Virus record (IMG/VR): IMGVR_UViG_3300044712_000429
Span: 6,036 to 70,035 of that record
Length of the DNA stretch: 64,000 nucleotides
Source: a virus
Direction: 5' to 3' (one strand)
The notes under the pieces are model-generated. The model ran no database searches, was not told where the DNA came from, and was given only the letters and a program-made list of their open reading frames with translations. The stretch's first letter is position 1; each line of letters begins with the position of its first letter. The position numbers were made by a program, and so were the translations under genes. Shown here in pieces: positions 1 through 45,868 of this stretch.

Positions 1-1
1 G

Positions 2-229
2 TCGGCATACGCTGTCGGCGCGACGGTGGGTTTCACCCCGTCGATACCGATTGAGATTGACCGCTCGTGGCAGGCGAACACCGCCGCCTCGTCCACCACC
101 GGGAGTCTCACCATCGAGTCTCTGGTCGTGGTTGCAGCAGACCCGAGGAAGGGTGCTGCTATCGTGAAGAACCAGACCACCAACGCACTCAGCTACGTCG
201 GCATCTCTGAACCTTCGGGAGGATTTTGA
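2..229 (+). CDS. Hypothetical protein, 5'-truncated by window edge
   Basis: Frame open from base 2 to TGA 229, overlapping the next ATG. Confidence 0.6.
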   Translation, partial: SAYAVGATVGFTPSIPIEIDRSWQANTAASSTTGSLTIESLVVVAADPRKGAAIVKNQTTNALSYVGISEPSGGF

Positions 230-477
230 TGACCACCACTGTGACGAACTGGTCGCTTGACTATGAGCAGCTCCCCGGCTGTCGCTTGAACCTGAATGCA
301 TTCCGCTTCTTTGGTGTGCATCCGAACGAGACCGGCACCTACGTGCTGTCACACCCTGGTCGAGGTGGGATTCTGGTGCGCGGAGGGACGAAGACAGACC
401 TCACAACGAAGGTCGGGGACTTCCCGGCAGACCTGAAAGCGGTAACACAACCCTTGTTTACACGCAAGAAACTCTGA
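229..477 (+). CDS. Hypothetical protein
   Basis: GGAGG RBS, TGATG coupling to upstream ORF. Confidence 0.6.
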   Translation: MTTTVTNWSLDYEQLPGCRLNLNAFRFFGVHPNETGTYVLSHPGRGGILVRGGTKTDLTTKVGDFPADLKAVTQPLFTRKKL

Positions 478-513
478 TACACTCTCGCGCACTCTGACAA
501 GGGGAACACCCAC

Positions 514-873
514 ATGGCTGCTGGCGAACTCGTAGGGCGCTGCTTTCACGCACGCACCATCGCCCACATTCTTCATTTGAAGACGCGCTCTTTTGCAGCC
601 CATAAGGCACTAAACGAGTTCTACGACGCCATCGTCCCGCTGACCGACAGCTTTGCCGAGGCGTACCAGGGTGAGTACGGTCTCATCGAAGACTATCCGG
701 TCAAGTTCGCGTCATACTCTGACGCTCTCGTATTGCTCTCTGAGCTGAACGACTGGATCGCGGCGAACCGCTTCGACTGCTGCGACAAGGGTGACACGTA
801 TCTGCAAAACATCATTGACGAGATCGTCGCCTTGATCAGCAGCACCACCTACAAACTGAAATTCCTCAAGTGA
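514..873 (+). CDS. DUF5856-like ferritin/Dps-fold protein
   Basis: HILHLKTRSFAAHKALNEFYD...D.FAEAYQG motif and C-terminal YKLKFL. Confidence 0.75.
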   Translation: MAAGELVGRCFHARTIAHILHLKTRSFAAHKALNEFYDAIVPLTDSFAEAYQGEYGLIEDYPVKFASYSDALVLLSELNDWIAANRFDCCDKGDTYLQNIIDEIVALISSTTYKLKFLK

Positions 874-880
874 GCTGACC

Positions 881-3016
881 ATGCCTGTTGACGCCGCGAA
901 ATCGCAAGAGAACTGGCTCCGCTTCCAGTACTGCCGTGATCGCGGCCACTTGGACTTCATCACGAAGGCTGACCGCTGCGAGCAGTTCTTCGTCGGCGAG
1001 CAGTGGAGCAAGGACGACCTTGCGCGGCTGAAGGAACAGCGCCGTCCGGCGATGACGATCAACAAGATTCTCTCGACCATGAGCAACATCCTGGGCGAGC
1101 AGATTCATAACCGCACCGAGATTCTGTTCCGGCCCAAGAACGGCTCACCCGCCGAGGTGGCCGAGGCGCTGACGAAGATATGGATGCACGTCAGTCAGGA
1201 GAACCAGCTTCCGTGGGTGCGCTCCGACGTGTTCTGTGATGGCCTTGTCAGGTCGCGTGGCTTCTACGACGTGCGCTTGAAGTTCAACGACTCCATGGAA
1301 GGTGAGCTGCAGATCACGCAGCTCAACTCGAAGAACGTCGTGATTGACCCCGACGCCGACGCCTACGATCCTGACACGTGGAATGACGTGTTCATCACGA
1401 AGTGGCTCTCGGGTCAGGACATCGCAATCCTCTACAACGAAGAAGATGGCGAGTACCTCGCCAACCGGGAGGGCAGCTCCTATGTGTACGGCTTCGACTC
1501 CCTTGAGCGCACGCGTGACCGCTTCGGCGGCCTCATGCCTGTTGCGGGTTACTACGACGTGGGCGACAAACAGAACGTGCGACGTAACGTACGCGTCCTT
1601 GAGCGACAGTACCGAAAGCTGGACAAGCAACTCCACTTTGTTGACATCGAGACCGGAGACATGCGCCCCGTCCCCATGGGATGGGATCGAAATCGCATTG
1701 CCAACCTTCTTGAGAAAGCGGGTGGGAATCTCTCTACGACGAAGAAGCTGGTTAAGCGCATTCGGTGGTGTGTCACCGCTGACAACGTCGTCCTCCACGA
1801 TGACTGGTCACCTTACAAGCATCTCACCCCGGTGCCGTACTTCCCCTACTTCCGTTACGGCAAGACCGTCGGGGTGGTGGAGAACCTCCTGGGGCCGCAG
1901 GAAATCCTGAACAAGGTTTCGTCGCAGGAGCTGCACATCGTCAACACCACCGCGAACAGCGGGTGGGTGGTGGAAGCCGGGTCGCTGGTCAACATGACCA
2001 TCGAAGAACTGGAAGCGAAGGGTGCTCAAACCGGCCTCGTGCTGGAGTACCAGAAGGGTTTCAACCCGCCCGAGAAGATCACGCCGAATAGCACACCTAC
2101 CGGCCTTGACCGTATCAGCTACAAGGCCGAGGAGCACATCAAGGGTATCTCTGGCGTGTCGGACTCCATGCAGGGTTTCGACCGCGAGGACGTTGCGGCC
2201 AAGGCTATCGCCTACAAGCAGGCTCGCGGCTCCGTGAACCAGACGAAGGTGCTCGACAACCTCGAACGCACGGACTACATCCTTGCGCGGAACTGCCTGG
2301 ACATCATTCAGGAGTTCTACACCGAGCCTCGCATCATCAACATCATCGGCGCGGACGTGACGCAGGCTCCGGAAGAAGTCCGCATCAACCAGTTCGATGA
2401 GACCACTGGGAAGATCGCCAACGATCTGACCCTTGGTGAGTACGACATCACGATCACGACCTCCCCGCACCGCGCCAGCCTCGAAGACAGCCAGTTCGAA
2501 CAGGCTCGGGCCATGCGCGAAATCGGTGTGGCGATTCCGGATAGCGTTCTCATCGAGAACAGCCGCCTCATGCGCCGTGCTGACATCATCAAGCAGATGG
2601 GGGATGACAAGAACTCCCCCGAAGCACAGGCGGCGGCGCAACTCGACCAGCGCGCACGTGAAGCGGAGGTCTCCGGTATGGAAGGTGACGCCGCGAAGAA
2701 GCACGCCGAGGCCGCGAAGATCGCTCAGGAAGCACAGGGTGGTGATCAGGCTGAGATCGCAAAGATGCAGGCCGAGCTTCAGATGGAGCGCGAGCGTCTT
2801 GACATGGAGCTGCAGAAGATGCGCGAAGAGATGGCGCTCAAGCAGCAGGAAATGATGCAGAAGTTGCACCTGAAGGCCGCAGAGCACCAGCAAGACGCGG
2901 CCATCAAGCAAGCCGACGCTGAGCAGAACGCTCAGCTTCGAGAGCAGGACGCTGCTGCGGAGCGCGCAAGAAAGCTCCGTGAAGGCAGTGAATCAGCAGA
3001 ACCCGCTAACGCCTAA
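881..3016 (+). CDS. Portal protein (P22/N4-like)
   Basis: 711 aa; GEQW...RRPAMTINKI N-terminus, PYFPY..GKTVGVVENL..PQ..LNK..S core, C-terminal coiled coil; upstream of scaffold and capsid. Confidence 0.92.
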   Translation: MPVDAAKSQENWLRFQYCRDRGHLDFITKADRCEQFFVGEQWSKDDLARLKEQRRPAMTINKILSTMSNILGEQIHNRTEILFRPKNGSPAEVAEALTKIWMHVSQENQLPWVRSDVFCDGLVRSRGFYDVRLKFNDSMEGELQITQLNSKNVVIDPDADAYDPDTWNDVFITKWLSGQDIAILYNEEDGEYLANREGSSYVYGFDSLERTRDRFGGLMPVAGYYDVGDKQNVRRNVRVLERQYRKLDKQLHFVDIETGDMRPVPMGWDRNRIANLLEKAGGNLSTTKKLVKRIRWCVTADNVVLHDDWSPYKHLTPVPYFPYFRYGKTVGVVENLLGPQEILNKVSSQELHIVNTTANSGWVVEAGSLVNMTIEELEAKGAQTGLVLEYQKGFNPPEKITPNSTPTGLDRISYKAEEHIKGISGVSDSMQGFDREDVAAKAIAYKQARGSVNQTKVLDNLERTDYILARNCLDIIQEFYTEPRIINIIGADVTQAPEEVRINQFDETTGKIANDLTLGEYDITITTSPHRASLEDSQFEQARAMREIGVAIPDSVLIENSRLMRRADIIKQMGDDKNSPEAQAAAQLDQRAREAEVSGMEGDAAKKHAEAAKIAQEAQGGDQAEIAKMQAELQMERERLDMELQKMREEMALKQQEMMQKLHLKAAEHQQDAAIKQADAEQNAQLREQDAAAERARKLREGSESAEPANA

Positions 3017-3033
3017 CCCCAAGGAGAAGCACG

Positions 3034-4098
3034 ATGTCCGCACTGATGATGAAGATGTTGCAACCCTACTGCAAACCCCTTGAAGAAGGTGCTGACGGTG
3101 GTGGTGGTGCTGTTGATCGCGGCGACGAGGTTGTGACCTCGAAGCTCGCCAACGGTGAAGAGGATGCCCAGGCCGCGAAGGAAGCTGCCGAGAAGGCCGC
3201 TGCCGACGAAGCAGCCGCTGCGGAGAAGCTCGCCGAGGAAGCGGCTGCGCGCAAGGCTGCTGATGAAGCCGCCGCTGCTGCTGCGAAGGAAGAACAGGCC
3301 CGGGATGAGAAGACCGGCAAGTTCGCCAAGAGGGACGACGCCCATATCCCCAAGGCACGCTTCGATGAAGCGGTGAACAAGGAGCGTCAGGCGCGTGAAG
3401 CCGCCGAGAACAAGCTCATCGAACTGCAGAAGCAGCTCAAGACGGTGGATCGTGCGGCTGATAACGAGAAGCTGGAAACCGAGATCACTGCGCTGGAGCA
3501 GCAGCACACCAAGCTCATGCTCGACGGCGAGAGTGACAAGGCTGCTGCGGTGATGAAGGAGATCAGGCTGAAAGAGCGCCAGATCGGCATTGCCACCAGC
3601 ACCGCAATGTCCGAGGCTGCGAAAGAGCAGGCTCGTGAGGACATTCGCTTCGACATGGCTGTCGAGAAGCTGGAAGAGACCTATCCGGAATTCAACCCGA
3701 AGCACGAGAAGTTCGACCGCGACCTCGTGACCATGGTGGTCGCGCTCCAGGGCCACAAGATCGGTGAAGGTCTGTCGCCCTCCAAGGCGCTGATCGCCGC
3801 TGCTGAAGACGTGATGAAGCGCCTCGTCGGCGACGGCGGCAAACCCAAGGAAGAGAAGAAGGAGGACGAATCGCTCTCCGCTGCCAAGGGTGCCACGGAT
3901 CGCAAGGCTGCTGCAGTCGAGAAGAACCTCGACACCGCGAAGCGTCAACCGGCCAGCACCTCCGTTGCCGGGAAGGACAGCGACAAGGGTGGTGAGAAGG
4001 CCGTGGGTTACGGTGAGAAGGGGATGATCATCACCCCCGAAGAGTTCGCAGCCATGCCGGAGTCTACCAAGTCCAAGTTGCGTGGAGACGTACTGTGA
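3034..4098 (+). CDS. Capsid scaffolding protein
   Basis: Ala/Glu/Lys-rich coiled coil, IPKARFDEAVNKER motif, C-terminal EEFAAMPESTKSKLRGD; AAGGAG RBS; between portal and capsid. Confidence 0.82.
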   Translation: MSALMMKMLQPYCKPLEEGADGGGGAVDRGDEVVTSKLANGEEDAQAAKEAAEKAAADEAAAAEKLAEEAAARKAADEAAAAAAKEEQARDEKTGKFAKRDDAHIPKARFDEAVNKERQAREAAENKLIELQKQLKTVDRAADNEKLETEITALEQQHTKLMLDGESDKAAAVMKEIRLKERQIGIATSTAMSEAAKEQAREDIRFDMAVEKLEETYPEFNPKHEKFDRDLVTMVVALQGHKIGEGLSPSKALIAAAEDVMKRLVGDGGKPKEEKKEDESLSAAKGATDRKAAAVEKNLDTAKRQPASTSVAGKDSDKGGEKAVGYGEKGMIITPEEFAAMPESTKSKLRGDVL

Positions 4099-4841
4099 AT
4101 GCTCCCACCATAACCATCGCAGACATCCACAGCAAGATCAAAGCCGCGACCTACACTTTGCTGAGTGATGGTCGCACGACGATCTGTCAACTTACGCTGG
4201 AAAATGGCTATACCGTGATCGGCAAGTCGGCTTGCGTCAGCGCGGAGAACTACAACCAAGCTCTTGGTGAGAAGTTCGCTTTCGAAGATGCCGTGAATGC
4301 GATTTGGCCCCTCGAAGGCTACCTGCTGAAGGAACGTCTCTTCCGCGAAGATCGTGGTGACGTGAATTCGTTCGCACAGGAGCAAGCAACTGCCACCCGA
4401 GCGCACATGATTGATGTGTATGCAGCACTGGGTGTTCGTTTCGGTGATAACCCGTTTCATCGCATCGAAGCTCTGGTTGCCAATCAGCCGCAGGATGTAC
4501 AAGCCCACCCGCTCGACAAGATCGCTCGCCTCTGCCACGAGGTGAACCGCGCCTACTGCCAAGCTCTCGGCGACGATAGCCAGGTGTCTTGGGAAGACGC
4601 TCCTGAGTGGCAGCGCGAGTCGGAGCGCATGGGGGTCGACATGCACCTCATGGGTGACTTCGGCCCCGAGGCGAGCCACATCGGCTGGATGAACCAGAAG
4701 ATCAGGGACGGCTGGACATACGGCCCGGTGAAGGACGCCGAGAAGAAGGAACACCCGTGCATGGTGGCCTTCGAACTTCTGCCGCGTGAGCAGCAAGCCA
4801 AGGATCACATCTTTCGTGCCATCGTGCACTGCTTCAAATAG
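4095..4841 (+). CDS. N4 Gp49/Sf6 gp66 (PF13876-like) domain fused to a RyR domain
   Basis: N-term TTICQLTLENGYTVIGKSACVSAENYN..LG....A...IWPLEGYLL; C-term HEVNRAYC...W...SH..WM..KI.DGW.YGPVKD..KKEHPCMV.F..LP..QQ.KD. Confidence 0.85.
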   Translation: MNAPTITIADIHSKIKAATYTLLSDGRTTICQLTLENGYTVIGKSACVSAENYNQALGEKFAFEDAVNAIWPLEGYLLKERLFREDRGDVNSFAQEQATATRAHMIDVYAALGVRFGDNPFHRIEALVANQPQDVQAHPLDKIARLCHEVNRAYCQALGDDSQVSWEDAPEWQRESERMGVDMHLMGDFGPEASHIGWMNQKIRDGWTYGPVKDAEKKEHPCMVAFELLPREQQAKDHIFRAIVHCFK

Positions 4842-4849
4842 GAGACATC

Positions 4850-5287
4850 ATGTCTGAAATCTCGCAAGTACTGGGTCGCACCACCGTCGTCCGCGACGCC
4901 GACACCAACAAGTTCATCGCTCTTCGGGATGATCACGGCAACGACGTTGTGACGGCGGCTGACTTCGCCACTGCTGCGTCGGTTTCAGACCTCCAAGCCA
5001 CCGTGGTGTACGAAACCACGGTCAACACCGTTGCGCCGGTCATCACTCCCGGCGCTGGTGTGGCTGGCACGGTCGAGTTCTCATGTACCACGGGTACGTG
5101 GAGCCATCTGCCTCTCTCCTACGCCTACCAGTGGCAGGCTGACGCCGTGGACATTCCCGACGAAACGGCCAACACCTACACCACCGTGGTGGGCGATGCG
5201 GGTAAGGAAATCACGTGCGTCGTCACCGCGACGAACGTCAAGGGCGCTGGCTCCCCGGTCAGCAGCAACGGCGTCACACCCTCGTAA
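4850..5287 (+). CDS. Virion protein with C-terminal Ig-like domain
   Basis: NTVAPVIT..G...SCTTGTW...SYAYQWQ...YT.V.GD.GKEITCVVTATN..G pattern. Confidence 0.75.
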   Translation: MSEISQVLGRTTVVRDADTNKFIALRDDHGNDVVTAADFATAASVSDLQATVVYETTVNTVAPVITPGAGVAGTVEFSCTTGTWSHLPLSYAYQWQADAVDIPDETANTYTTVVGDAGKEITCVVTATNVKGAGSPVSSNGVTPS

Positions 5288-5296
5288 GGAGCGGTC

Positions 5297-5896
5297 ATGA
5301 AACGCATCACCAACAGCTACACCTCTGTCGCGGCCAGCGTCACCGGCTTCGCTTCCAACGTAACCGCCGACGTGTGGGCGCTGACCGCCAATGTCCCGGG
5401 TGATGATCTCGCCCACAAGCTCACCATCAAGGGTGACGCGGCTACCGACCACTCAGCCAAGACAGCCGTCATCGTCGGCCTGGACGAGAACGGTGCCGCG
5501 CAGAGCGAGACCGTCAACCTGCCCAACGGTGTGGCGACGGTCACCAGCACCAAGTACTGGTCTCGCGTCACCTCGGTCACGCCGAGCGCCACCATCGGAC
5601 TCGACACCATGGACATCGGTTGGGCGGCAGAGTCCGTCGCGCCGTGGATTCCCGTGGCGAACTTCAGCATCCCCGGGGTCTTCAACCTCGGTTTCGTCGT
5701 GAAGCCCACAGCCGGTGCGCCCACCTATACCGTCCAAAGCTCCTATGACGACAGCTACCCGGTGGATCATGCGACCGTTGCGGCCATTGCAAACGCCGTG
5801 GCTACGGGCGCCTACACCGCTGCGATCTCCAGCATGCGGGTCAAATTCACCGCAGCCGGTGCACTCACCCTGACCGCGATGGTGGCCCACCTCTAA
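5297..5896 (+). CDS. Putative virion structural protein
   Basis: AAGGAG RBS, Thr/Ala/Val-rich beta-type composition, head module. Confidence 0.65.
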   Translation: MKRITNSYTSVAASVTGFASNVTADVWALTANVPGDDLAHKLTIKGDAATDHSAKTAVIVGLDENGAAQSETVNLPNGVATVTSTKYWSRVTSVTPSATIGLDTMDIGWAAESVAPWIPVANFSIPGVFNLGFVVKPTAGAPTYTVQSSYDDSYPVDHATVAAIANAVATGAYTAAISSMRVKFTAAGALTLTAMVAHL

Positions 5897-5933
5897 AAAT
5901 CTCTTGCGCGGCTCTAATATTCTCTGTTAGAGT
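5891..5933 (+). promoter_or_regulatory. Putative capsid-gene promoter with phased CTCT boxes
   Basis: TTGCGC-18-TAGAGT with extended -10 TG; CTCT at 5891, 5901, 5912, 5922. Confidence 0.5.
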
Positions 5934-6115
5934 CGCGCCAGTAGCAAAAACCACTTGGGGTTTGTACCAAGGCCGTCCAGCTAGGGACGAAAAAACCAGC
6001 CGCCTCGTCAGCGTCAAAGGTCGTCGTTTCGCCGCTGTCAGCGACAAGACAGATGCATGAAGCCGCAAGAGAGCTTCGGAACCGCACGACCTTTACAACT
6101 GATTAGGAGCCAATC

Positions 6116-7243
6116 ATGGCAAACACCAATTTTGGTCTATTGACCAATGAACAGAAGACCATCTGGTCGATGGACTTCTGGAAGCAGGCCCGCAACTTCT
6201 CCTTCGTCAACAAGTTCCTCGGCAAGGACAGCAACTCGATGGTGCAACACATCGATGAGCTGAAGAAGACCGAGAAGGGCGCACGCGCCGTCATCACCCT
6301 CGTCGCCGACATGGAAGGCGATGGCGTGGTCGGAGACCGCACCCTGAAGGGCAACGAAGAAGTCCTCAAGTCGTACGACCAGGTGATCCGGATCGACCAG
6401 ATGCGGAACGCGAACCACAACGAAGGTCGCATGGCCGAGCAGAAGTCCATCGTCACCTTCCGCGAGCAGTCCCGCGACAAGCTGGCCTACTGGTTGGCTG
6501 ACCGTATCGACCAACTGGCCTTCCTGACCCTGTCCGGCGTCGCCTACTCGCAGACCAACAAGGGCGCTGCCCGTGTCGGCTCCGATCTGACGAACCTCGA
6601 ATTCGCGGCTGACATCACCGCCCCGTCCTCGAAGCGCAACCTGACCTGGGATCAAGGCACCAGCACCCTGCAAGTCAACGCAGGCACTGGCGGCATCGTG
6701 GCTGGCGCCATCGGCACCGGCGACTACCCGTGTTGGGACATGTTCGTCCAGGCAAAAGCCTACGCCAAGGACAACTACATCCGTGGCACCGTCAGCAAGG
6801 AAGGCGAAGAGCTGTATCACATCTTCCTCACGCCCCAGGCGATGGCGAAGCTGAAGCTCGATCCGGTCTACCGCGACAACCTGCGCTACGCCCAACAGCG
6901 TGGTTCGGCCAACGAACTCTTCACTGGTTCGAGCGTCAAGATCGACGGCCTGATGCTGCACGAGTTCCGTCACGTCTACAACACTGCGGGTGCCGCTGCT
7001 GGCTCCAAGTGGGGTGCTGGTGGAAACGTCGACGGCTGTCAGATTCTGATGTGCGGCGCGCAAGCGATGGGTATGGCAGACATCGGCAACCCCGAGTGGG
7101 ACGAGATGTCCGATGACTACGGCAACAGCTTCGGTATCGCTGTCGCAAAAATCCTCGGCTTCAAGAAGCCCCAGTTCTACACCCAGTACTCGGGCGGCAC
7201 CGTGCAAGACCACGGCGTCATCTCGATCTACACCGCTCAGTAA
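6116..7243 (+). CDS. Major capsid protein, N4-gp56/DUF4043 type
   Basis: TNFGLLT.EQ..IWS.DFWKQARN.SF.NKFLG..NSMVQHI.ELKKTEKGARAVITL..D..GDGV.GD.TL.GNEE; AGGAG RBS. Confidence 0.93.
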   Translation: MANTNFGLLTNEQKTIWSMDFWKQARNFSFVNKFLGKDSNSMVQHIDELKKTEKGARAVITLVADMEGDGVVGDRTLKGNEEVLKSYDQVIRIDQMRNANHNEGRMAEQKSIVTFREQSRDKLAYWLADRIDQLAFLTLSGVAYSQTNKGAARVGSDLTNLEFAADITAPSSKRNLTWDQGTSTLQVNAGTGGIVAGAIGTGDYPCWDMFVQAKAYAKDNYIRGTVSKEGEELYHIFLTPQAMAKLKLDPVYRDNLRYAQQRGSANELFTGSSVKIDGLMLHEFRHVYNTAGAAAGSKWGAGGNVDGCQILMCGAQAMGMADIGNPEWDEMSDDYGNSFGIAVAKILGFKKPQFYTQYSGGTVQDHGVISIYTAQ

Positions 7244-7254
7244 GGAGAAAGACC

Positions 7255-7707
7255 ATGACTGCAAAGATCGCAGCCCGTACCGCCCAGTGGCCGCTTGCGG
7301 CTGAGTTCACCTTCAACTTCGATGACACGATGAAGGACACAGCCGGGGTCACCCGTGACTTCGGCTCCCTGGCTGGCGGCTCGTCCGCTGCCACCTTCTA
7401 CGCCTTCGAACCGATCCCGCTGCCCGTGGGTGCCACCGTCATCGGTGGTCACGTGGTGACGGACACCGCGTTCGACACGGCTGGTTACGACGTGAAGGTG
7501 GGTGACAGCGCCTCGGTTGACCGCTACCTCGGCTCGACCGACAAGAAGGGCACCGGCCTGACCGAGCTGGTTCCGACCGGCTACGTCGGCGTCGGTGAAA
7601 ACCTTCGTGTTTCGGTCTCGACCGATGACGCCTGCACCACCGGCAAGATGACCGTTCGTGTGCTCTACACGATTGCGAATCGCGCCAACGAAAACACGAT
7701 CAACTGA
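7255..7707 (+). CDS. Putative capsid decoration/minor head protein
   Basis: Directly after capsid gene, strong RBS, LP.GA.V.GG.V.TDTAF...VGD...RYL pattern. Confidence 0.7.
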   Translation: MTAKIAARTAQWPLAAEFTFNFDDTMKDTAGVTRDFGSLAGGSSAATFYAFEPIPLPVGATVIGGHVVTDTAFDTAGYDVKVGDSASVDRYLGSTDKKGTGLTELVPTGYVGVGENLRVSVSTDDACTTGKMTVRVLYTIANRANENTIN

Positions 7708-7720
7708 TCGTGCCAACCAA

Positions 7721-7744
7721 GCAACGGGGCTTCGGCCCCGTTGC
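7721..7744 (+). terminator. Stem-loop after head genes, probable terminator or processing site
   Basis: GCAACGGGGC-TTCG-GCCCCGTTGC, perfect 10-bp stem with UUCG loop; weak U tract. Confidence 0.7.
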
Positions 7745-7765
7745 TCTACCTACTGGAGAAAACTC

Positions 7766-8164
7766 ATGCCCGAATTCATTCTGAATCGCACCCACGTCCT
7801 CGACGGCAAGGGTCACAAGATTCGCTTTACCAAGGGTCAGCCCACCTACGTGCCGCCCGAACTTATCCGCGAAGCTATCGGCATCGGTGCCGAGTGCCTG
7901 GACGAAACCGTCAAGCCCTTCGGCGACGACGAGGACGAGGACGGCAAGATCGACCCGAACAAGATGACGCCGGAAGACAAGGAAAAGGTGTTCTTCGCCG
8001 CCTTCGAGCTTCTGATCGAGCGTAATGGCCGCGATGACTTCGGCGGCGACGGCAAACCCGCCATGGACGCCCTGAAGAAGCTGATCGACTTCAACTTCGT
8101 CAAGAAGGAGCGTGACGCGGCATTCCAGAAGTTCCGTGAGCAGAAGGAAGCCGCGAAGGACTGA
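7766..8164 (+). CDS. Hypothetical protein
   Basis: GGAG RBS before ATG 7766, phage-like codon usage. Confidence 0.75.
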   Translation: MPEFILNRTHVLDGKGHKIRFTKGQPTYVPPELIREAIGIGAECLDETVKPFGDDEDEDGKIDPNKMTPEDKEKVFFAAFELLIERNGRDDFGGDGKPAMDALKKLIDFNFVKKERDAAFQKFREQKEAAKD

Positions 8165-8856
8165 TGATGAAGAACTCCGGTGAACTGATCGACCGCTTCC
8201 GTGCGGACATCGTTGACGTAGCCAAACCCTACCTCTGGTCGGACGAAGAGGTGGTGAACTACGCGGACGATGCCTACCGCATGTTCATCAGGCTCACCGG
8301 GGGCATCGCAGATTTCACCAGTGATCTCACGAAGATTCAACTGGTGACCGGGGAGGACATCGTGGAACCCCACGAGTCCATCCTCCGCGTCATGACGGCG
8401 ACTCTCGCCTCGACAGGTAACGAGATCGAGGTTCTGAACGCCACCGACCTCCCCATGCTGTTCCAGAGCAACGTCGACTACGGCTCGCTGCGCACCTTGT
8501 CCATGAAGAACCTCCCCGGCGCGGTGCGCTGGCTGATCATGGGTATGGAGCGCAACAAGGCCAAGGTCGTTCAGATTCCGATTGCCGATGACGAGATCAA
8601 CATGTTCGTCTATCGACTGCCCAAAGACCACATCACCGACGAGAAGCACGAACTCGGCGACATCGCTGAAGAGCACCACATCCACTTGCTCAAGGGGATG
8701 AAGGGGTTGGCTTACCTAAAGCAAGACGCTGAGACCTTCGACAAGACGAAGGCTGCTGAGTCAGAAGCTGCGTTCCGCGCCTACTGCGCCCAGTGCAAGG
8801 CCGAGTGGGAGCGGTACAAACACAAAACCCGAGTCGTCGCGTACGGCGGTCTCTGA
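8164..8856 (+). CDS. Putative head-tail adaptor protein
   Basis: ELI..FR.D..D...PYLWSD.E...Y..DA N-terminus typical of adaptors; position. Confidence 0.7.
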   Translation: MMKNSGELIDRFRADIVDVAKPYLWSDEEVVNYADDAYRMFIRLTGGIADFTSDLTKIQLVTGEDIVEPHESILRVMTATLASTGNEIEVLNATDLPMLFQSNVDYGSLRTLSMKNLPGAVRWLIMGMERNKAKVVQIPIADDEINMFVYRLPKDHITDEKHELGDIAEEHHIHLLKGMKGLAYLKQDAETFDKTKAAESEAAFRAYCAQCKAEWERYKHKTRVVAYGGL

Positions 8857-8994
8857 TGAACACGCAAAAGCCCCAGGCGGCGGTGGGTGCGTGTGGGCGA
8901 CTGAGTGCTTGCCTCAAAACACCGTCAGCACAGGCGCACGCTAACTCCATGGTGTGCGGCCTGTTGCACCTATTCGAAACCTAGAGGAATAGTC

Positions 8995-9393
8995 ATGTCC
9001 GAGTTCAACCGCCGCGAGTCCGATAAACACCTCGACATCGAGCAAATGATTATCGAGGAGCCTGATCCGAAGCAGCGGGCCTTCCTCGTGGTGTTGAACT
9101 CGATCAACCAGTCGTTGCAAGCCAACACGGTTCTTACGCAGACCGTCAGCAGCAAGCTGGAAAAACATCTGACCAACTTCGAAGAGCACGCCCGGGAAGA
9201 GGAGGCTCTCATGAACAAGGGTCGCGGGGCATGGAAGGTGGCCGCATGGGTCATCGGCATCGCCCAGGTGATCGGTGTAGCCGTGTGGGTGGACGCACGC
9301 TCGGAGCTGATGGGGGTGCACAACAACATCGCCACGCTAACCATGACCGATGCGAATCATGACCACCGCCTCAAGGCTTTGGAAAAGAAATGA
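8995..9393 (+). CDS. Lysis-region membrane protein (coiled coil plus one TM helix)
   Basis: RR motif, coiled coil, TM AWKVAAWVIGIAQVIGVAVWV; GAGG RBS. Confidence 0.65.
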   Translation: MSEFNRRESDKHLDIEQMIIEEPDPKQRAFLVVLNSINQSLQANTVLTQTVSSKLEKHLTNFEEHAREEEALMNKGRGAWKVAAWVIGIAQVIGVAVWVDARSELMGVHNNIATLTMTDANHDHRLKALEKK

Positions 9394-23280: not shown

Positions 23281-24675
23281 ATGGCTACCTCAAAGAAGAA
23301 GATCGCTCTCGAAAACGCCAAGAACGCAGAGGACGTGTTCAAGGCTCGCGCCGCAGCCGACTCCGTGCGCGGCTCACAGGAAGCCGCAGCCGCTGCGAAA
23401 GCTGCTGCCGCCGCTGGAGCGGACGGAATCCCCGGCTCACTGCGTTCCTTCTTCAACAAGGTGCCTGTCGGTGCAGCCGCGAAGGAACTTGGTAAAGAGA
23501 TTGGCCTCGCCGGGGCGAAGGCACTACCTGTCGCAGGTAACGTGGTCTCTGGCGGTCTCGCTGCCAAGGGTGTCTATGACATGGTCACTGACCCTTCTCA
23601 GCGCACCCTTGGTCGTGCCGCAGAGACCGCGCTGGATGCTATCGGTGCAATCCCTGTCTTGGGTAACGCATCGAACGCTCTGCGCTTTGGCAGCAAGGCC
23701 GCTCAGGTGGGTGCAATCGCAGCCGGTGGCCTTCGCTCCGCACTGGGTACGGACGAAGCAATCCCTCCGGTATCTGTGAATCCTGCCGAGGTTGCCGCCC
23801 TGCGTGCAGAGCGCCCCGCACAAGCAGCCGCAGGAGCACAACCTGCCAGCCTTCAACCCGCCCCGGCTCCGACTCTTGAACAGAACATCGACGCTCGCGC
23901 CGGTCGCGTGGAAGACCTTCGTGGTGCCGTGTCGGACGCTCAGACCGCTTACGATAACTCGCGCCTACAGGGTGCAATCGATTCGTACGCGCAGCGGATT
24001 CCCGGCATGGCCGCGTTCGCCTTGGCGAGCCAAGGTATCCGCTCGGCACCGGAAGCAGCCACGTTGAAGAGCGCAACACGTGACTATGCAATGGCGCGCA
24101 GCGATGCAGCCCACGATGACAAGGTTGGTCTGGAACTGGGTACGCTTCGCTCTCAGCAATCCCTTGCCCAGGCGAAGATGCACCATGACATGCTGAACAA
24201 CACGGCAGATCGTGTGGGCAAGTTCGAGGCGCGTTCCACTGTCGGGCCTGATGGGAAGACGAACCCCGACGCTGCAGCGTTCAACTCTGACGTTCGCCGC
24301 ATTGCCTCCGACGACGCCGCGCTTGCCGGTGAGACTACCCCGACACTGGCGCTGGCGCGACTGCAAGGCGCTGTGGATGACACGAACGCCATGCGCAACT
24401 ACAACGACGTGGCATCGGTTAATCGCCGCATGAGTACAGCCCCGAAGGTGCTACCGGGTGCCGACACCGTAGGGTTCCGCGACGCGCTGCCGGGAGGCGC
24501 TGGACTGGGTGCAGCTATTCGCGCCAAGCTCACTCGCACCCCCAACGAGGTCTACACCGTTCGCACACCTGACGGACAAGAGCAACGCATCCTCTCCACC
24601 GATCTTTCCGGTGGTGACTCGACACTTCGCGCACGCTATGCGAAACAAGCAGGGCTGACACAAGGGAATCGTTAA
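23281..24675 (+). CDS. Putative ejection protein
   Basis: Ala-rich, between coiled-coil protein and giant protein. Confidence 0.6.
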   Translation: MATSKKKIALENAKNAEDVFKARAAADSVRGSQEAAAAAKAAAAAGADGIPGSLRSFFNKVPVGAAAKELGKEIGLAGAKALPVAGNVVSGGLAAKGVYDMVTDPSQRTLGRAAETALDAIGAIPVLGNASNALRFGSKAAQVGAIAAGGLRSALGTDEAIPPVSVNPAEVAALRAERPAQAAAGAQPASLQPAPAPTLEQNIDARAGRVEDLRGAVSDAQTAYDNSRLQGAIDSYAQRIPGMAAFALASQGIRSAPEAATLKSATRDYAMARSDAAHDDKVGLELGTLRSQQSLAQAKMHHDMLNNTADRVGKFEARSTVGPDGKTNPDAAAFNSDVRRIASDDAALAGETTPTLALARLQGAVDDTNAMRNYNDVASVNRRMSTAPKVLPGADTVGFRDALPGGAGLGAAIRAKLTRTPNEVYTVRTPDGQEQRILSTDLSGGDSTLRARYAKQAGLTQGNR

Positions 24676-27600
24676 TGGGACTCATACTCGACACTGCCCC
24701 TCTCGGTCTCCGCGCCGGAGCGTTCAGCGGGAACGGTAACGTCGCACCGCCCCCGCGTGGTGAGATCGAGAAAGGATTCAACCTCGGCGTAGGTGGCGTG
24801 GCTTCCGGCCTTCAAGGCTCTGTTGCCACGCTTCAAGACGCCCTCGGTTATCACGACGAGGCGCTGGCTCGCTACGCTGCTGCACGCCTTGAAGCTGAGC
24901 GCATGGCGCGTGAGAACCCGCTAGCCGTGCAGAACTTCACCGACATCAACAGCCTCGGTGACGCCGGGAACTGGGCAGCGGGTGCGCTCGGCCAAGCCGT
25001 GCCGTCCATCGCCACAGGTATTGGTGGTGCTGTCGCCGGTCGCCTGGGCCTCGGTGCCGCAGCGAAGTTCGCCAAGAATCGCGGCTCGGCTGCAGTGTCC
25101 CAAGCCCTGAGCAACCCGACACTGAACACCGCCGTAGGTGCTGGCCTCGGCATGCTTCCGCAAGAAATGGGTGAGAGCGCCATGAGCTTGTATGGCGACC
25201 CCACTGCAATGGCGAACACGACGCCCGTGGATCGCCTCGGCATCAACCTTGGAAAGGGGGTGGTCAATTCTGCGCTCGAATCCATCGTACCGGCCTACAC
25301 CATCGGCAAGGTGGTGAAGCCCGGTGTGATCAAGGGCGGCATGGGTGGCGCGGCGGCGCACGTGGGGAAGATTGCAGGCATAGACGCTGCTGGTGAGTTC
25401 CTGACTGAAGGCGCTCAGAACGTGGTGGGAGACCTTGCGCACGGGGTGGCGAACCCTGCGAACAAGGTGGACTGGAAGGAAGCCTTCAACGCCGGTATGG
25501 CAGGCGCTGTAGGTGGCGCGGCGATGGGTGGTGCCGGTGGTATCGCCGGTATCGCCAAGGACAAGCTCAGCAAGACTCCTGAGCCGAAAGTCACGAAGGC
25601 CGTGGACGACAACCGCAAGTGGACACAGCACTCGGAGCTTGACGGCCTCACCACGCCGCAGGAAGCCCCTCGGGGCTTGCGCAAGAACGGCACGGACGAC
25701 GAGCTGCTGGCGTGGCAGGGGCAAGACGACGTGGCGCGCACGCAGAAGGCCGTGAAACTCGCCAAGGACATGGTAAGCGATCCCGCTGCGCCGCAGGACG
25801 TGAAGCAAGCCTCGGCTGACTTCCTGACGGAAGCCGAGAACGGCAACGCCCAGGCATGGGCTGAGTACTCCGCTGCCTTGGGCCATCGCCGCGACATCGT
25901 GAAGACCACGGAGAAGGTGGAAGACTTCGCCTCGAAGGTGGGCGAGCTTCTGGCGAAGGGTGTCAAGAAGGTGGAAGGCACCAAGCAGAGCTTGATGCAG
26001 AACACCACGGCGAAGAACTACACCCCCACTGAAGCGGACTTGGACTTCGCACAGCGCCTGTTCTCGCGTGACAACATGCAGGGCTTGGACAAGAAGCTGG
26101 ATGACAAGTCAAAGGCAATGTTCGCCAAGTACCTGCGCGGTTACATCGAGAGCGGCTTCGGTGCGGAACATAATGACGGTGAGGTCGTAGTCCCCGACCA
26201 GCTCAGCGAGCTGCTTGGTGAACACACGGCAAAGGCGATCACCAACGCTGCTGACATCCTGCGCCGTGACCACGGCTTCAAGATGGACAAGACCTACGTT
26301 GAGCGTGTGAAGCAAGTGGCTGAAGTGGTCTCTGGTCACGCCACGGCGCGCAAGGCTGACAAGCAGATCATCAGTGACAACCTCACTTCCGAGGCGTACG
26401 ACACACTGCACGCTTCAAGGCTCGGTGACGTGGCGCAGATGGCGAAGGAGCAGGCGCTCGGCCTCGGTAAGCATACGGACAAGCTGAAGGCGCTCCTCGG
26501 CCCGAACACCGACGCGGTGTTGCAAGCGTTCCATGACAAGTACAAGCGCGAGTCTCCCGGTACGGTCGACCTTGGTCGCCAGCAAGTGGAGGATGACGAA
26601 GGTGTTGTTCACACAGGGCATGAAGGTGAATCCTCTGTGTCCGAGGACAAGGTCACTTATCACGGGCGCGATGCAAAGAAGGGTGGCCTCTATGACATGG
26701 AGAACCCCGAGCATCGTGACTGGCACGGCAAGAACCTTGCGGACATCGCCGCTCGCAAGGGTGCCACCACACGCTCCATCGGCGCTGCGGACTATCTGCT
26801 GAACAGTGGGATGAAACCAGAGCAGGCCCAGGCTGAACTTGAAAAGCTCCTCGGCGCACCTCTTCCGGCCTCGGCCAAGGAGCGCAAGCCTGTGCTGGAC
26901 GCACTGAACAAGCGTTACCGTGGCATTGAAGCGACGGTGCATGCCGGTGAAGAGGCTGACCCGCTGACCATCACACACGACGAGATGAAGTCCCTGCGCG
27001 ACGGTGGTGACAAGAAGAACCGTCACATCGGCTTGGGTCGCCTGACACTGGTGGCGAAGGACGGCAAGGAGTTCCACACGTCTTCGCAGCGCCTCATCCA
27101 GCTCATGGAGAAGAAGACGAACGCCGACATCAGCGCCACCGAACAAGGTGGTGTTGAAGCGAAGCGCCGTCAGTTCTCAGCAGCTCTGGCGTCGATCATG
27201 CAGAGCGAGAACTTCGATCACATTCGCTACACGGACAAGCAAGGTGTGACGCACGATCTTGCGAAGGGTGAGTCGTTGCCCAAGGACTTCGTGCTGTTCA
27301 ACTTTGGCCTGGGCAAGTCCGTCACCCTCGGTGAGGCTGAGCAAGGTCGCAGCGATGAGCAGCAAGCCAAGAAGGAAGCTGCCGACGAGCGCCGCCGTGT
27401 GTTGAAGGAGCGCAACAGCGAGCTGAACGGCTATCAAGTCACGCGCTATCCGAGCAAGGAAGCTGCTGCAAAGAAAGCTGCCGAGCTGTCCAAGGCGAAG
27501 GACAAGGACTACGTTCCTGTCCTTGGTGCCAACGGCAAGTGGCTCGTTGAGCAGCGCCGTGCCGCGAAGCGTGGCTACACGGACGGTGTGGACACGAATA

Positions 27601-30600
27601 ACCTTGCTGATTACACACGTGCTGAGCTGACGGAAGAGATTGGCAAGGCAACTGCCGGTATCGCCAACGCACAGAACGAAGGGCATCGCGCTGCGCTTGA
27701 GTCCCGCCTGGATAAGCTGAATGAAGAGCTGGCCCTGCGTCCCGATGACGAAGACAGCGGACCTCGGCGCGGTGACGCACAGATGTCTGCTGTGGTCACT
27801 GAGGACGCGGCAGTTGTGTCCGGTAAGAAGGCGTACGACGCAACGCTTGCCAAGCTCGCCGATGTGAACGAAAAGCTCCTGACGGTGAAGAACATCGTTG
27901 AGCGCAAGACACTGCGCGCTCTGCGCTCGGACTTGAACGCACAGCTTCGTCGCATGGAGTCCGAGAAGGAAGCGGGTTCAATCTCTGCGTCCGATACAGC
28001 GAATCAGCGCCGCCCCGACCTCGCCAAGCCGTTCGCTCAAGAGTTCGGCGATACGGCTGTGCAGAACGCCGCCTCTGGCAAGACGAACACGAACACCAAG
28101 TCTCCTTACGCAGGCAAGGCTACTCCGTCACTGGACGAAGGTGTTGTGTTCTCCGAAAACGCTGCTGAGCAGCAAGAATCCCAAGTCCATGTGCGCGACG
28201 AAGAGACCAAGCTCGACGTACAGGGTAAGCACAGCCGCAATCAACAGAGCGCCACTGAGCGCATCGGCACGCTGAAGGGGATCATCAGCACCACGGAGCA
28301 GCGCCTCGCCAAGGGTCGAGAGCTGCTGGCCAAGGCCGCACCCAAGAGCCGTGAGGCGATCATCGAAAACGGCAAGCGCCTCGCTGGTGTGCTGGCGAAG
28401 GCTCAGCGCGAGCTGGCCGAGGTGGAAGAGAACCTGAAGGTGCTCGACAAGAAACCAAGCGCCACGACAAACAGCGCAGAAGTCACCGTCACCCCTGAAG
28501 TAGAGGCGGCGATCCGCGAGTACGCGGAGCGGGTGCTAGGCCCGAAGTTCAAGGTCATCATCAAGGATATGGCCATCGCCGGTGAGTGGTCTCCCAAGGG
28601 TGCCATGCGTATTGCCACCACCGCCGTAGACCCCTACGGCGTGGCCCACCACGAGTCCATCCACGAGCTGTTCAAGCGCCTGCGCGATCACGGTGACGCA
28701 CGCACTCTCGAAGTGTTGAACAACCTGTCGACCAACAAGATCATCCGGCGCAAGCTCGAACAGCTTCTCGCCGGTCACCCCGAGGCAATCAAGCAGCTCT
28801 CTGATCCTGAAGAGTTCGCCGCGTACGTCTATCAGTTCCACGCAGCCGGTGTGCTTGAGCTAGGCCCGAAGGCCGAAGGTCTGTTCGCCAAGATCAAGAA
28901 CTTCATCAAGGGTGTGCTCGGTGTCCTGACGGAAGACCAGAAGGCCGAGCAAATCCTCATCGCCTTCAACCAGGGTGCGGCCAACGACATGAGCTTCTTC
29001 GGCCAAGCCATGAACGCCATGGACTCGATGAACGCGGAGTGGGGCAAGGTGACGACCAACCTGAGCGGCTACGTGGATAAGGCCAACGCCTTCCTCGGTT
29101 CCGTGGAAGGTCGCCTCGTCGGGAACAAGAACCCGCACCTCGACACCCTCGGTCGCCTGTTCGTGAACGTGGTCGGTGAGAAGGGTCAGCAAGGTCACCT
29201 TCAAGCCGTGCGCCAGAAGATCGACCAGATGGACTCCGGTCTCAAGCGTGCCATCGAGCGCGCCTACGGCCCCGACGAGGAGATAGACCCGAAGGATGTG
29301 GAGATGGCGATGGAGGCGATGCAGAAAGGCATCACAGCCCCTGACCGCATCGCTCGCAAGATTCAAGACGAGATACAGGGTCTCAAGCCGGGTGGCATGA
29401 CCAGCGACGGTCGCAAGTCCTTCTTCCTGCGCATGCACGAGTACCTGAAGGACTCTGGCGTATCCGTGTGGGACAACGAGAAGGACGCCTGGGTGCCGGT
29501 GAGCTACGTGGAGAACTACTTCCCGCGTGCATGGGACACGGAGAAGCTGGCATCAAACGGTGAGCAGTTCATCGCTTTGCTGCTGCAGCACCACACCAAG
29601 GACTTGCAGGGTATCGCCGACAAGGTGAATGCCGAGAGCAAGGCAGCGAAGCCGCTGACACCGGAGGACATCGCTCACGCGATCCTTCAGCGCCTGACCA
29701 CGAGCAATGGCCAGAACGACCTGGGCGAGACCAACTCGTCCATGGGCTTCGCGCCGTTCATGAAGGCGGTCAACAAGCGCACCCTGAACTTCATCGACAT
29801 GCGTGTGTTCGCCGAGTTCCAAGAGAAGGACTTCACCCATATCCTGTCCGGCTACATCCGTCAGGCTGTGAAGCGCGCCGAGTACGTGAAGCGTTTCGGC
29901 CTCGCCGGTGAGGTGGTAGAGAGCAACATGCGGCAGGCTCACGAGTGGGAACTCAACAAGGATGCTGACGGGATGGGTGTGAAAGACCTCGTCGGCAAGG
30001 CCAAGAGCGCATACCGCTTCGAGAGGGATGCGGCGATTAAGGCTGGCAAGAAGCCGCCAAGCGAGTGGCAAGACCTGATCCCGCGCATCATGAAGGACAA
30101 CGGGGTTGATGACCAAGGCGTGTCCGAGCTGACGAAGCGTGTGAACGAGCGCATGGTGAGCTATGCCAAGGCGATCTCTGCCATGGAAGGCACCCTCGGC
30201 GCTGACGCCTCTGACCTGACCAAGACTGTCAGCAGCTACATGATGGCCTACCAGAACTGGCGCAACCTCGGCTACGTCCTGTTTGCAAACATCATCGACC
30301 CCATGGGGACGATCATCAACGGCGGCGAAGTGAATGACGCCTTCGCCACACTGCGCGCCGGTCTCACAAGCATCGTCAAGGGCAAGGACTACAAGACCGA
30401 CGCGATCAAGCTGGCCGAGTACGTAGGCACCATCGACGCGAACCACTTCCACGGGATGCTCGGTGAGATGTACGGCTCACAGTTCACGGCCAAGGGTGCT
30501 GCATGGCTGAACGACAAGCTGTTCCAGTTCAACGGTATGGAAGCCTACAACCGTGGCGTCCGCGCCCAGGCGACGATGGTGGCGAAGAAGTTCATCGAGA

Positions 30601-44144: not shown

Positions 44145-44653
44145 GCTGTTGCTCCTTTCGGCCAGCCAGCGGCGACCAGGGTAGCCACCACGTTCGAGAT
44201 AGCGGGGAGGTTGTCGGTCTTGCCGCCGTCACGGTCGGCAGGCAGGTATTCCTTGAACTCGGGAAGGCGTGCTTCGGCCACCTTCAACGTGCTGCAACCT
44301 TCGATGAGGGCCTTGAGTCGTTCCTTCAGTTCGTTGCGTTGCAGACGCTGCTCAGCGGACTTGTCTTGCAGGGCGCCCAGTTCGTCGTAGATGGGGCACT
44401 TTTCATCGAACCCCCAGTCGCTCGGGCGAACCATGTAAAGGTTCGGGAAACGACCCGGCATGTAGGTGTATTTGAAGTCGAGTAGCGGGCGCGCTTCGGG
44501 GTTCTTCCACGCGGCCTTGATCTCTGCAGGGCAGATGTTGTCGATGATCCATGCCTGAAGACGATCACTGATCATCTCCTCGTAATCAATCTTCGGTACG
44601 TCGTCCATGACAGCGCGAACGAACGCTTCCTTGTCGGTCTTGGTGAGTCTCAT
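44141..44653 (-). CDS. Nmad5-like (nucleotide modification associated domain 5) protein
   Basis: MRLTK.DKEAFVRAVMDDVP.IDY...I.GC.TLK.A...LPEF..YLP...L..AGWPK. Confidence 0.75.
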   Translation of the reverse strand: MRLTKTDKEAFVRAVMDDVPKIDYEEMISDRLQAWIIDNICPAEIKAAWKNPEARPLLDFKYTYMPGRFPNLYMVRPSDWGFDEKCPIYDELGALQDKSAEQRLQRNELKERLKALIEGCSTLKVAEARLPEFKEYLPADRDGGKTDNLPAISNVVATLVAAGWPKGATA

Positions 44654-45621: not shown

Positions 45622-45868
45622 TTTGCAGCTCCTTCAGAGCTTGATGATTCGGCTTAGACGGTGTCAGAGTCTTGTACACAGGGGTGGCCCCGTCGCGCTG
45701 AACGCGAGGCCATCCATCAGCTCCCAAGAGGAAGATCACGCCGTTGGAGCGCAGCCACATGGCAATCTTGCTGCGCTGCCGGTAGCCGCTCCAGGCGACG
45801 AGGTCATCTCTACTTAGGACGAACGAAGACGGTGAACTTCTCGAATTCGATTTCGACACAATCGTCAT
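45584..45868 (-). CDS. DUF4224-like protein, probable excisionase
   Basis: LS.DDL...SGY........WL..NG..F....DG.PRV...PN; overlaps int start; exact start uncertain. Confidence 0.75.
   Translation of the reverse strand: MTIVSKSNSRSSPSSFVLSRDDLVAWSGYRQRSKIAMWLRSNGVIFLLGADGWPRVQRDGATPVYKTLTPSKPNHQALKELQSGSPKNSSTRSS

Follow-up and report, generated by a model that had tools for sequence, protein, structure and literature searches.

Two families of phage proteins that act on the nucleotide signals of bacterial immunity form the background to this work. Acb4 of phage SPO1 is a 96-residue tetrameric sponge for 3'3'-cGAMP, a homotetrameric pinwheel with its ligand pockets at the protomer interfaces; its family (PF13876) comprises 1,331 homologs, and each of the eight diverse members tested, several of which carry additional extensions, bound 3'3'-cGAMP (bioRxiv 10.1101/2024.12.30.630793). 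The ryanodine receptor (RyR) domain family (PF02026) includes mycobacteriophage DyoEdafos gp78 (RyDEP), a glycosidase that opens 2'/3' cyclic ADP-ribose (2'/3'cADPR) with the dyad H75/D117; six of eight homologs bound this signal, none cleaved it, and two of them, H4 and H7, work in vivo as sponges of nanomolar affinity (PMC13232231). H7 is gp68 of Pectobacterium phage vB_PatP_CB1, also known as RyR Tad, which sequesters gcADPR via its C-terminal RyR domain and binds it about 100-fold more weakly when H129/W132, K147/H154 or K170/D171 are mutated (bioRxiv 10.64898/2026.06.04.730250). Two fusions are also described: Acb4-Sequestin (Pseudomonas phage Ab09 gp59), a tetramer that binds gcADPR tightly and cGAMP weakly (bioRxiv 10.64898/2026.06.04.730250), and Acb4-Tad2 (Pasteurella phage Pm86), which overcomes type I Thoeris as well as type I cyclic-oligonucleotide-based antiphage signalling (CBASS) and comes from a study in which fusion to Acb4 or Tad2 served as a discovery principle (bioRxiv 10.1101/2025.07.12.664507). 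Here we describe an open reading frame (ORF) that joins an Acb4-like (PF13876) to a RyR/RyDEP-like (PF02026) domain. It occupies positions 4095-4841 (+) of the window, a 64,000-nucleotide stretch corresponding to bases 6036-70035 of the virus record IMGVR_UViG_3300044712_000429, which is 70,035 bp long, carries direct terminal repeats and is rated 100% complete. From its domains, ligand residues and genomic setting, the product is probably a soluble counter-defence protein of two nucleotide-signal-binding modules, that is, a double sponge carried as accessory cargo of the head operon.

The ORF encodes 248 residues plus a stop codon and begins with GTG. The start codon (4095-4097) overlaps the TGA (4096-4098) of the preceding scaffold-like ORF to form GTGA (4095-4098; raw sequence GTACTGTGAATG), and a Shine-Dalgarno motif, GGAG (4084-4087), lies 7 nucleotides upstream of the start, so that the whole initiation region spans 4084-4098 (+). 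The homologs P0007, P0008 and P0010 share the start position (MNAP...), which supports the GTG assignment. An antisense ORF, 4008-4829 (-), overlaps the gene; the family matches belong to the plus-strand frame. Pfam identifies PF13876 (Phage_gp49_66) at residues 6-82, with an E value of 1e-23, a score of 84 bits (cut-off, 27 bits) and the entire profile aligned (positions 1-82 of 82). PF02026 (RyR) is found at residues 192-237, with an E value of 1.9e-9 and a score of 38.1 bits (cut-off, 27.4 bits). Both scores exceed the curated cut-offs and the domain assignments are therefore not due to chance. In PHROGs each half (residues 2-97 and 122-248) matches families of unknown function only. An AlphaFold2 model built from 47 same-order fusion homologs has a mean predicted local distance difference test score (pLDDT) of 90.2, and a Foldseek search of the PDB with this model returned SPO1 Acb4 (PDB 9e4w) first (E value 1.3e-4, target TM score 0.66-0.77), followed by RyR Repeat12 structures; both folds were also matched by VIA-align. 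A preliminary description of this DNA, prepared from the letters alone, had recognized a single ORF in the head operon, coupled to the scaffold stop by GTGA, with an N-terminal Gp49-type domain and a C-terminal RyR-type domain at about residues 140-248. All of this holds: the overlap is read directly in the sequence, the Pfam matches place both domains, the structural C-terminal domain spans residues 137-248, and the gene is flanked by portal, scaffold-like and PF13252 capsid genes. The links that it drew to the literature, of PF13876 to Acb4 and of phage RyR domains to ADP-ribose (ADPR)-derived Thoeris signals, are likewise stated in the sources (bioRxiv 10.1101/2024.12.30.630793 for the former; PMC13232231 and bioRxiv 10.64898/2026.06.04.730250 for the latter). 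By sequence and predicted fold, the fusion is a real and well-supported member of the two recently characterized counter-defence families.

The N-terminal domain (residues 1-88; 4095-4358, +) belongs to the Acb4/N4 gp49 family according to Pfam, phmmer and VIA-align. In the model it consists of a helix (residues 8-13), three strands (15-22, 28-35 and 40-46) and a long helix (55-87), giving a three-stranded sheet flanked by helices, with a core resembling double-stranded RNA-binding domains, that superposes on SPO1 Acb4. VIA-align aligned residues 6-80 to Acb4 with a Z score of 10.0 and an r.m.s.d. of 2.4 Å over 74 residues at 26% identity, and a phmmer search of PDB sequences also matched 9e4w (E value 5.5e-5). 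The domain thus shares family and fold with SPO1 Acb4, which is a stand-alone protein of 96 residues, whereas here the module is fused.

The C-terminal domain (residues 140-248; 4512-4838, +) is a four-helix domain similar to RyR Repeat12, as assigned by Pfam, phmmer, VIA-align and a residue map. Its helices are modelled at residues 141-157, 171-186, 191-204 and 231-247. VIA-align superposed residues 137-248 on 9l91 and 6uhi, the targets being human RyR3 R12 and a Bacteroides/human (Bt-hRyR) chimera, with Z scores of 9.1-9.2 and r.m.s.d. values of 2.9-3.0 Å for 112 residues. Helical folds can produce unspecific VIA-align Z scores of up to about 13, and the sequence evidence is therefore given more weight. 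Searched with phmmer against the PDB, the protein matched RyR1-3 at about 1e-16 and a 139-residue entry, '35tm_A RyR domain-containing protein', at 1e-9; judged from the molecule name and length, this entry is probably DyoEdafos RyDEP. The six residues implicated in gcADPR binding by RyR Tad are all identical in the window protein, where H129, W132, K147, H154, K170 and D171 correspond to H195, W198, K213, H220, K236 and D237. The spacing between them is also identical, and all six are invariant across the 47 aligned same-order fusions; the ligand pocket, whose absence would have spoken against the preliminary description, is accordingly present in the RyR half. Overall the C-terminal domain is 56% identical (61 of 109 residues) to that of CB1 gp68 and 68% identical to that of NW77_088 of Erwinia phage phiEa2809.

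Among the described systems, RyR Tad is likewise a two-domain protein with RyR at its C-terminus. Its N-terminal domain, however, is inactive and is not PF13876 (Pfam detects RyR only), and its gene adjoins a DNA primase gene in an N4-like anti-signalling hotspot rather than lying in a head operon. DyoEdafos RyDEP belongs to the same Pfam family and shares the H/W/H/D residues but is much more distant (phmmer E value 1e-9); it is a single-domain protein encoded in a NARP1 NAD-salvage operon and is the only catalytic member among nine tested (RyDEP and its eight homologs). Acb4-Sequestin and Acb4-Tad2 follow the same design as the window protein, an Acb4-family domain joined to an anti-Thoeris sponge domain, and both were shown to act against CBASS and type I Thoeris. 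They differ in the partner, which is PF21825 or PF11195 instead of RyR/PF02026, and in position, since they are found in an early or middle anti-defence island. The same PF13876-RyR architecture and order are found by Pfam in NW77_088 of phiEa2809. This protein and the Salmonella Det7-like fusions have a longer, unrelated middle region and are encoded in large Ackermannviridae genomes among hypothetical genes. The N-terminus of NW77_088 matches homolog H8 as printed in the supplement of the RyDEP study, and from host genus and architecture only we infer that the Salmonella Det7-like fusions correspond to H6 of that paper. The full-length sequences printed for H6 (Salmonella) and H8 (Erwinia) have a further half N-terminal to the RyR domain, although cloning was confined to the RyR part (PMC13232231). 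The Acb4-like nature of this half is confirmed by Pfam for H8, via the phiEa2809 protein, and judged by eye for H6, and the two homologs were thus assayed as isolated RyR domains whose full-length forms carry an Acb4-like half.

The pairing is widespread. Searched against 5.8 billion clustered proteins, the sequence had 1176 matches at E values of 1e-5 or better, and both Pfam domains are present in all 120 sequences among the matches listed (119 matches plus the query). Crude motif classes divide the 119 listed homologs into 59 with PF13876 followed by RyR, 22 with the reverse order, 25 with the RyR motif only, eight with the gp49 motif only and five with neither; Pfam coordinates confirmed the order wherever they were checked (RyR first in nine of nine, PF13876 first in three of three). 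In a tblastn search of named phages, 886 records matched, 85 of them over at least 80% of the query, among them Erwinia and Salmonella phages of the Ackermannviridae and several phages of Vibrio. A scan of genome contigs returned eight loci, with no same-order fusion among them. Unfused forms also occur. The Schitoviridae Klebsiella phage pKP-BM327-1.1 has a separate gene for each domain, the two lying next to each other and overlapping; adjacent unfused pairs are found at L002, L016 and L055, and on the viral contigs L032 and L036 the pair stands beside a Tad2-like PF11195 gene, forming compact three-gene islands of PF13876, PF11195 and RyR (L032:2873-3859 and L036:1256-2236). PF13876 and RyR are each found as stand-alone genes in L002, L016, L032 and L036. 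The occurrence of both orders, of fused and unfused forms and of Tad2-like company points to functional coupling of two independent anti-signalling modules. A ribonucleotide reductase gene precedes the L032 island, and the L036 island has a ribonucleotide reductase gene on one side and a terminase gene on the other. As a separate observation, two viral contigs of roughly 110 kb contain seven separate RyR-domain matches each within 7 kb (L045:173-6937 and L054:2255-9363; tblastn identities of 25-50%), arrays of tandemly diversified RyR-domain genes.

The genomic slot that holds the fusion is variable. A megablast of window positions 800-7300 against the phage collection found no near-identical named phage; by capsid protein, the closest named relatives are the Pseudomonas phages KPP25 and phiR18 (59.6%). 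Three viral contigs of the same lineage, L004, L016 and L055 (portal 57-64%, capsid 66-70% identical), carry the modules in the slot after the scaffold-like gene. L004 has the same fusion with the capsid gene directly after it. On L016 the slot holds a RyR-only gene, a PF13876-only gene and then a 512-residue gene (L016:6824-8362), for which a GDSL-like lipase/acylhydrolase match was recorded below threshold (28 bits against a cut-off of 32.9). L055 has RyR followed by PF13876; its RyR (L055:3314-3679) is possibly frameshifted, being split over two overlapping frames (ORFs 3314-3679 and 3471-3674, two tblastn pieces), which could reflect a frameshift or an assembly error. On L053, a distant contig whose portal is 24% identical, a RyR-only gene stands between the portal and capsid genes. 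In KPP25 (capsid 60%, portal 45% identical) the slot between the scaffold-position and capsid genes is empty, and this phage gave no RyR match and only a weak PF13876-like match elsewhere (E value 1.7e-4). With no gene in KPP25 and differing contents among the relatives, the slot is a variable cargo site and the fusion gene is accessory.

The two halves of the gene appear to differ in history. The C-terminal domain is 69% identical to the L016 RyR gene, in line with the capsid (66%), while the N-terminal domain is 46% identical to the L016 PF13876 gene. G+C content at third codon positions (GC3) is 0.64 in the N-terminal domain, 0.51 in the middle and 0.83 in the C-terminal domain, compared with 0.755 ± 0.056 for 25 other listed genes of the plus-strand block 514-31214, and this step inside the ORF (4095-4838) fits a composite origin. 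The within-lineage identities and the GC3 step together suggest that the RyR module was resident first and that the Acb4-like module may have come in separately, along with the spacer. Two plus-strand ORFs of at least 90 residues on each side were surveyed at 36 non-redundant viral loci; 17 of 53 loci were set aside, including nine near-duplicates, one named Erwinia phage, two multi-RyR arrays and four loci already classified as head-module. One or more genes of head, packaging, connector or tail type adjoin 16 of the 36 loci, 13 have DNA-metabolism neighbours only and seven have no annotated neighbour. L004, L016, L055 and L053 are all head-module loci by tblastn, and with them the structural neighbours rise to 20 of 40. 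The same-order fusions on L005-L008 and L011, in contrast, have replication and recombination genes around them. A location in a structural module is thus common for RyR and PF13876 genes without being the rule.

In the mechanism that we propose, the RyR domain would sequester gcADPR in the pocket formed by H195, W198, K213, H220, K236 and D237, most likely without cleavage, and the Acb4-like domain would most likely tetramerize and bind some CBASS-type cyclic dinucleotide. Two signalling defences would in this way be weakened by one polypeptide, as has been demonstrated for Acb4-Tad2 and Acb4-Sequestin. The preliminary description had favoured a sponge plus an enzyme; in this version the RyR domain would be an inverting glycosidase of the RyDEP type that converts 2'/3'cADPR to ADPR while the N-terminal domain sequesters cyclic dinucleotides. 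35tm_A was not among the five alignments shown from a PDB profile search with eight RyR domains, and the RyDEP residues were compared by eye with the sequence printed in the supplementary table of PMC13232231. The dyad residues H75 and D117 and the ligand residues W78 and H100 of RyDEP align without gaps and with a constant offset of 120 to H195, D237, W198 and H220, so that the catalytic dyad is present as H195/D237 and catalysis is compatible with the sequence; the match to 35tm_A (E value 1e-9) is in keeping with this. These residues are also kept in non-catalytic homologs, however, and the dyad, being common to sponges, does not discriminate between enzyme and sponge. None of the eight RyDEP homologs tested cleaved the signal, and the C-terminal domain is much closer to the sponge RyR Tad/H7 (56%) and to phiEa2809/H8 (68%) than to RyDEP. 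Near RyDEP Q54, a mutated pocket residue, the window protein has a WQxxS motif as in the non-catalytic homologs (an approximate, by-eye comparison), and S176 of this motif is invariant in the same-order fusion alignment. The window also lacks, in Pfam and PHROG searches, the NARP1 genes that would use ADPR. The accessible parts of the RyDEP and RyR Tad studies report no RyR-domain activity on His-ADPR, the type II Thoeris signal. The closeness to sponges and the absence of catalysis among eight homologs lead us to prefer the sponge for the RyR domain; on these grounds sponge plus sponge appears likelier than sponge plus enzyme, and we regard the enzymatic version as quite unlikely.

It is also unlikely, in our judgement, that only one half acts on immune signals, the RyR domain working alone while the PF13876 domain serves mainly as a tetramerization scaffold or binds another ligand (2'3'-c-di-AMP or another cellular nucleotide). 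The Acb4 pocket speaks for this alternative. With 9e4w chain positions taken as the numbering of the Acb4 paper plus one (verified on nine residues), only one of nine alignable 3'3'-cGAMP contacts is identical (N63 to N54), five are conservatively changed (K36 to R27, F48 to Y39, V56 to C47, F62 to Y53 and I66 to L57) and three are replaced non-conservatively (E49 to T40, Y57 to V48 and T70 to F61); a further contact, K81, lies outside the 9e4w alignment. The pocket keeps its aromatic and hydrophobic frame but lacks the guanine-specific Glu and two backbone contacts; none of its positions is invariant among the fusions, and since the guanine-reading pair K36/E49 is not preserved the cGAMP specificity of the domain is uncertain. 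These differences count against a double sponge, as does the catalysis-compatible dyad. The N-terminal domain of RyR Tad, of a different family, is moreover inactive, and Acb4-Sequestin bound cGAMP weakly and antagonized CBASS only partially (bioRxiv 10.64898/2026.06.04.730250). Set against this, 3'3'-cGAMP was bound by eight of eight diverse PF13876 homologs, Acb4-Tad2 inhibits CBASS in vivo, and the stand-alone PF13876 genes beside RyR and Tad2-like genes are a better fit to an independent sponge than to a mere scaffold. The address between scaffold and capsid genes, the translational coupling to the scaffold gene and the structural-type neighbours (16 of 36 non-redundant loci and four of four further ones) could instead speak for a virion role, as a head accessory or internal protein that is required for assembly or is packaged and ejected with the DNA. 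Immune-evasion genes are typically expressed early to mid infection (PMC13232231), which makes a head-operon position atypical for an anti-signalling gene and could likewise point to another role. Yet the slot holds nothing in KPP25 and differing genes in relatives, the same-order fusions on L005-L008 and L011 are surrounded by replication and recombination genes, both families are characterized as soluble oligomeric sponges or enzymes, and the CB1 RyR gene is outside the structural proteins confirmed by mass spectrometry that are annotated in the stretch examined, so that we consider a virion role very improbable.

For the double sponge, gene position and translational coupling are the only basis for supposing late expression at capsid level. 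The gaps between consecutive head-block genes are 17, -4, 8 and 9 nucleotides, followed by 219 nucleotides before the capsid gene. Within window positions 1-9000, no sigma-70-like promoter was found where 1.9 were expected, and no plus-strand terminator-like site, compared with nine on the minus strand where 7.7 were expected; both counts are weakly informative. The tight spacing without plus-strand terminator or promoter agrees with a transcript shared with the head genes and with coupling to scaffold translation, although it is not evidence of amount, and the gene would probably be transcribed with the head genes and translated in step with the scaffold gene, as accessory cargo in the variable scaffold-to-capsid slot of a 70-kb podophage of the KPP25 type. 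The non-coding 219 nucleotides at 5897-6115, just upstream of the capsid gene, are the one gap of any size in the head block and could contain a promoter or an RNA element with a regulatory role; KPP25 has a similar gap of 181 nucleotides. Capsid proteins are sensed by some Thoeris systems at least (PMC12578639), and it may be speculated that a sponge made together with the capsid would coincide with such a trigger. We put forward, tentatively and with considerable doubt, that the scaffold-to-capsid gap of KPP25-like podophages is a slot for anti-signalling cargo, and that a double sponge coupled to the scaffold gene, both of its modules functional, is timed and scaled to the appearance of the capsid, the antidote being made alongside the trigger rather than early.

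Each module and the fusion principle having been published in 2024-2026, the finding is incremental and not surprising, and what is new, a modest novelty, is the Acb4-RyR pairing as such and its conserved head-operon slot. No discussion of this fusion was found in the literature searched: RyR domains are unmentioned in the accessible supplements of the Acb4 preprint (bioRxiv 10.1101/2024.12.30.630793) and the word 'ryanodine' is absent from the text of bioRxiv 10.1101/2025.07.12.664507. If confirmed, RyR/RyDEP would be the third partner in Acb4-based fused double sponges and the pairing a widespread one. The locus would also provide a concrete anti-signalling gene in a late head operon, bearing on when phages must neutralize CBASS and Thoeris signals.

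The middle insert (residues 89-139; 4359-4511, +), with predicted helices at residues 90-112 and 120-130, is a lineage-specific linker. The preliminary description had thought that this segment, for which it quoted the string VYAALGVRFGDNPF (beginning at residue 108), could be a third module. This suggestion is not supported: of 60 same-order fusions, just the few closest have the insert, and relatives elsewhere were not detected. It is shared with P0007, P0008 and P0009 and faintly with P0026; P0087 and P0096 carry an unrelated insert, and the Ackermannviridae proteins carry another, longer one. The distance from motif to motif is 99-123 residues in 53 of the 60 same-order fusions (query included) and at least 145 in the other seven. 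Model confidence is lower here (block pLDDT 62-84), with averages of 80, 82, 84, 80, 71 and 62 for the ten-residue blocks of residues 81-140; the VIA-align search barely probed residues 81-135, and no Pfam match covers the segment. Two readings were rejected. As for an internal duplication, local alignment of residues 86-140 with the C-terminal domain scored 17, which was reached by 963 of 1000 shuffles, and with the N-terminal domain 20, reached by 508 of 1000 shuffles. As for an independent module, a search with residues 84-140 returned only the query at E values of 0.01 or better (12 candidates). The most fitting reading of the segment is a helical spacer, specific to the lineage and placed at a permissive junction, rather than a conserved third module. 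The middle region of the Ackermannviridae PF13876-RyR proteins (L066:3974-4807; phiEa2809 NW77_088), by comparison, is about 95 residues long and unrelated to this insert and, unlike the spacer in the window, is long enough for a domain of its own.

The surrounding head block begins with a P22-like portal gene (881-3016). The scaffold-like gene (3034-4098, +) encodes 354 residues rich in Ala, Glu and Lys and is assigned by position and composition only; it has no family match in Pfam or PHROGs, and homologs occupy the same position in L004, L016 and L055 (tblastn). Downstream of the fusion, the scaffold-to-capsid slot holds two more genes before its boundary at the major capsid protein gene (PF13252; 6116-7243, +). 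One (4850-5287, +) encodes a 145-residue protein with a weak Ig-like/Hoc-like signal (PHROG E values 2e-12 to 3e-3) and the other (5297-5896, +) a 199-residue protein with no family match in Pfam or PHROGs. No counterpart of either was matched in L004, L016, L055 or KPP25, and they may represent further cargo, either decoration or counter-defence proteins. Other anti-defence families were not detected in the window by Pfam (60 ORFs) or PHROGs (44 ORFs). Further along, positions 24675-31214 encode a 2179-residue virion structural protein without a Pfam domain, recognized through phrog_30152 over its C-terminal 330 residues (E value 2e-114). A tyrosine integrase gene (PF00589) with an adjacent DUF4224 gene lies at 44650-45868 (-) of what is otherwise a KPP25-like podophage with terminal repeats, and the phage may therefore be temperate.

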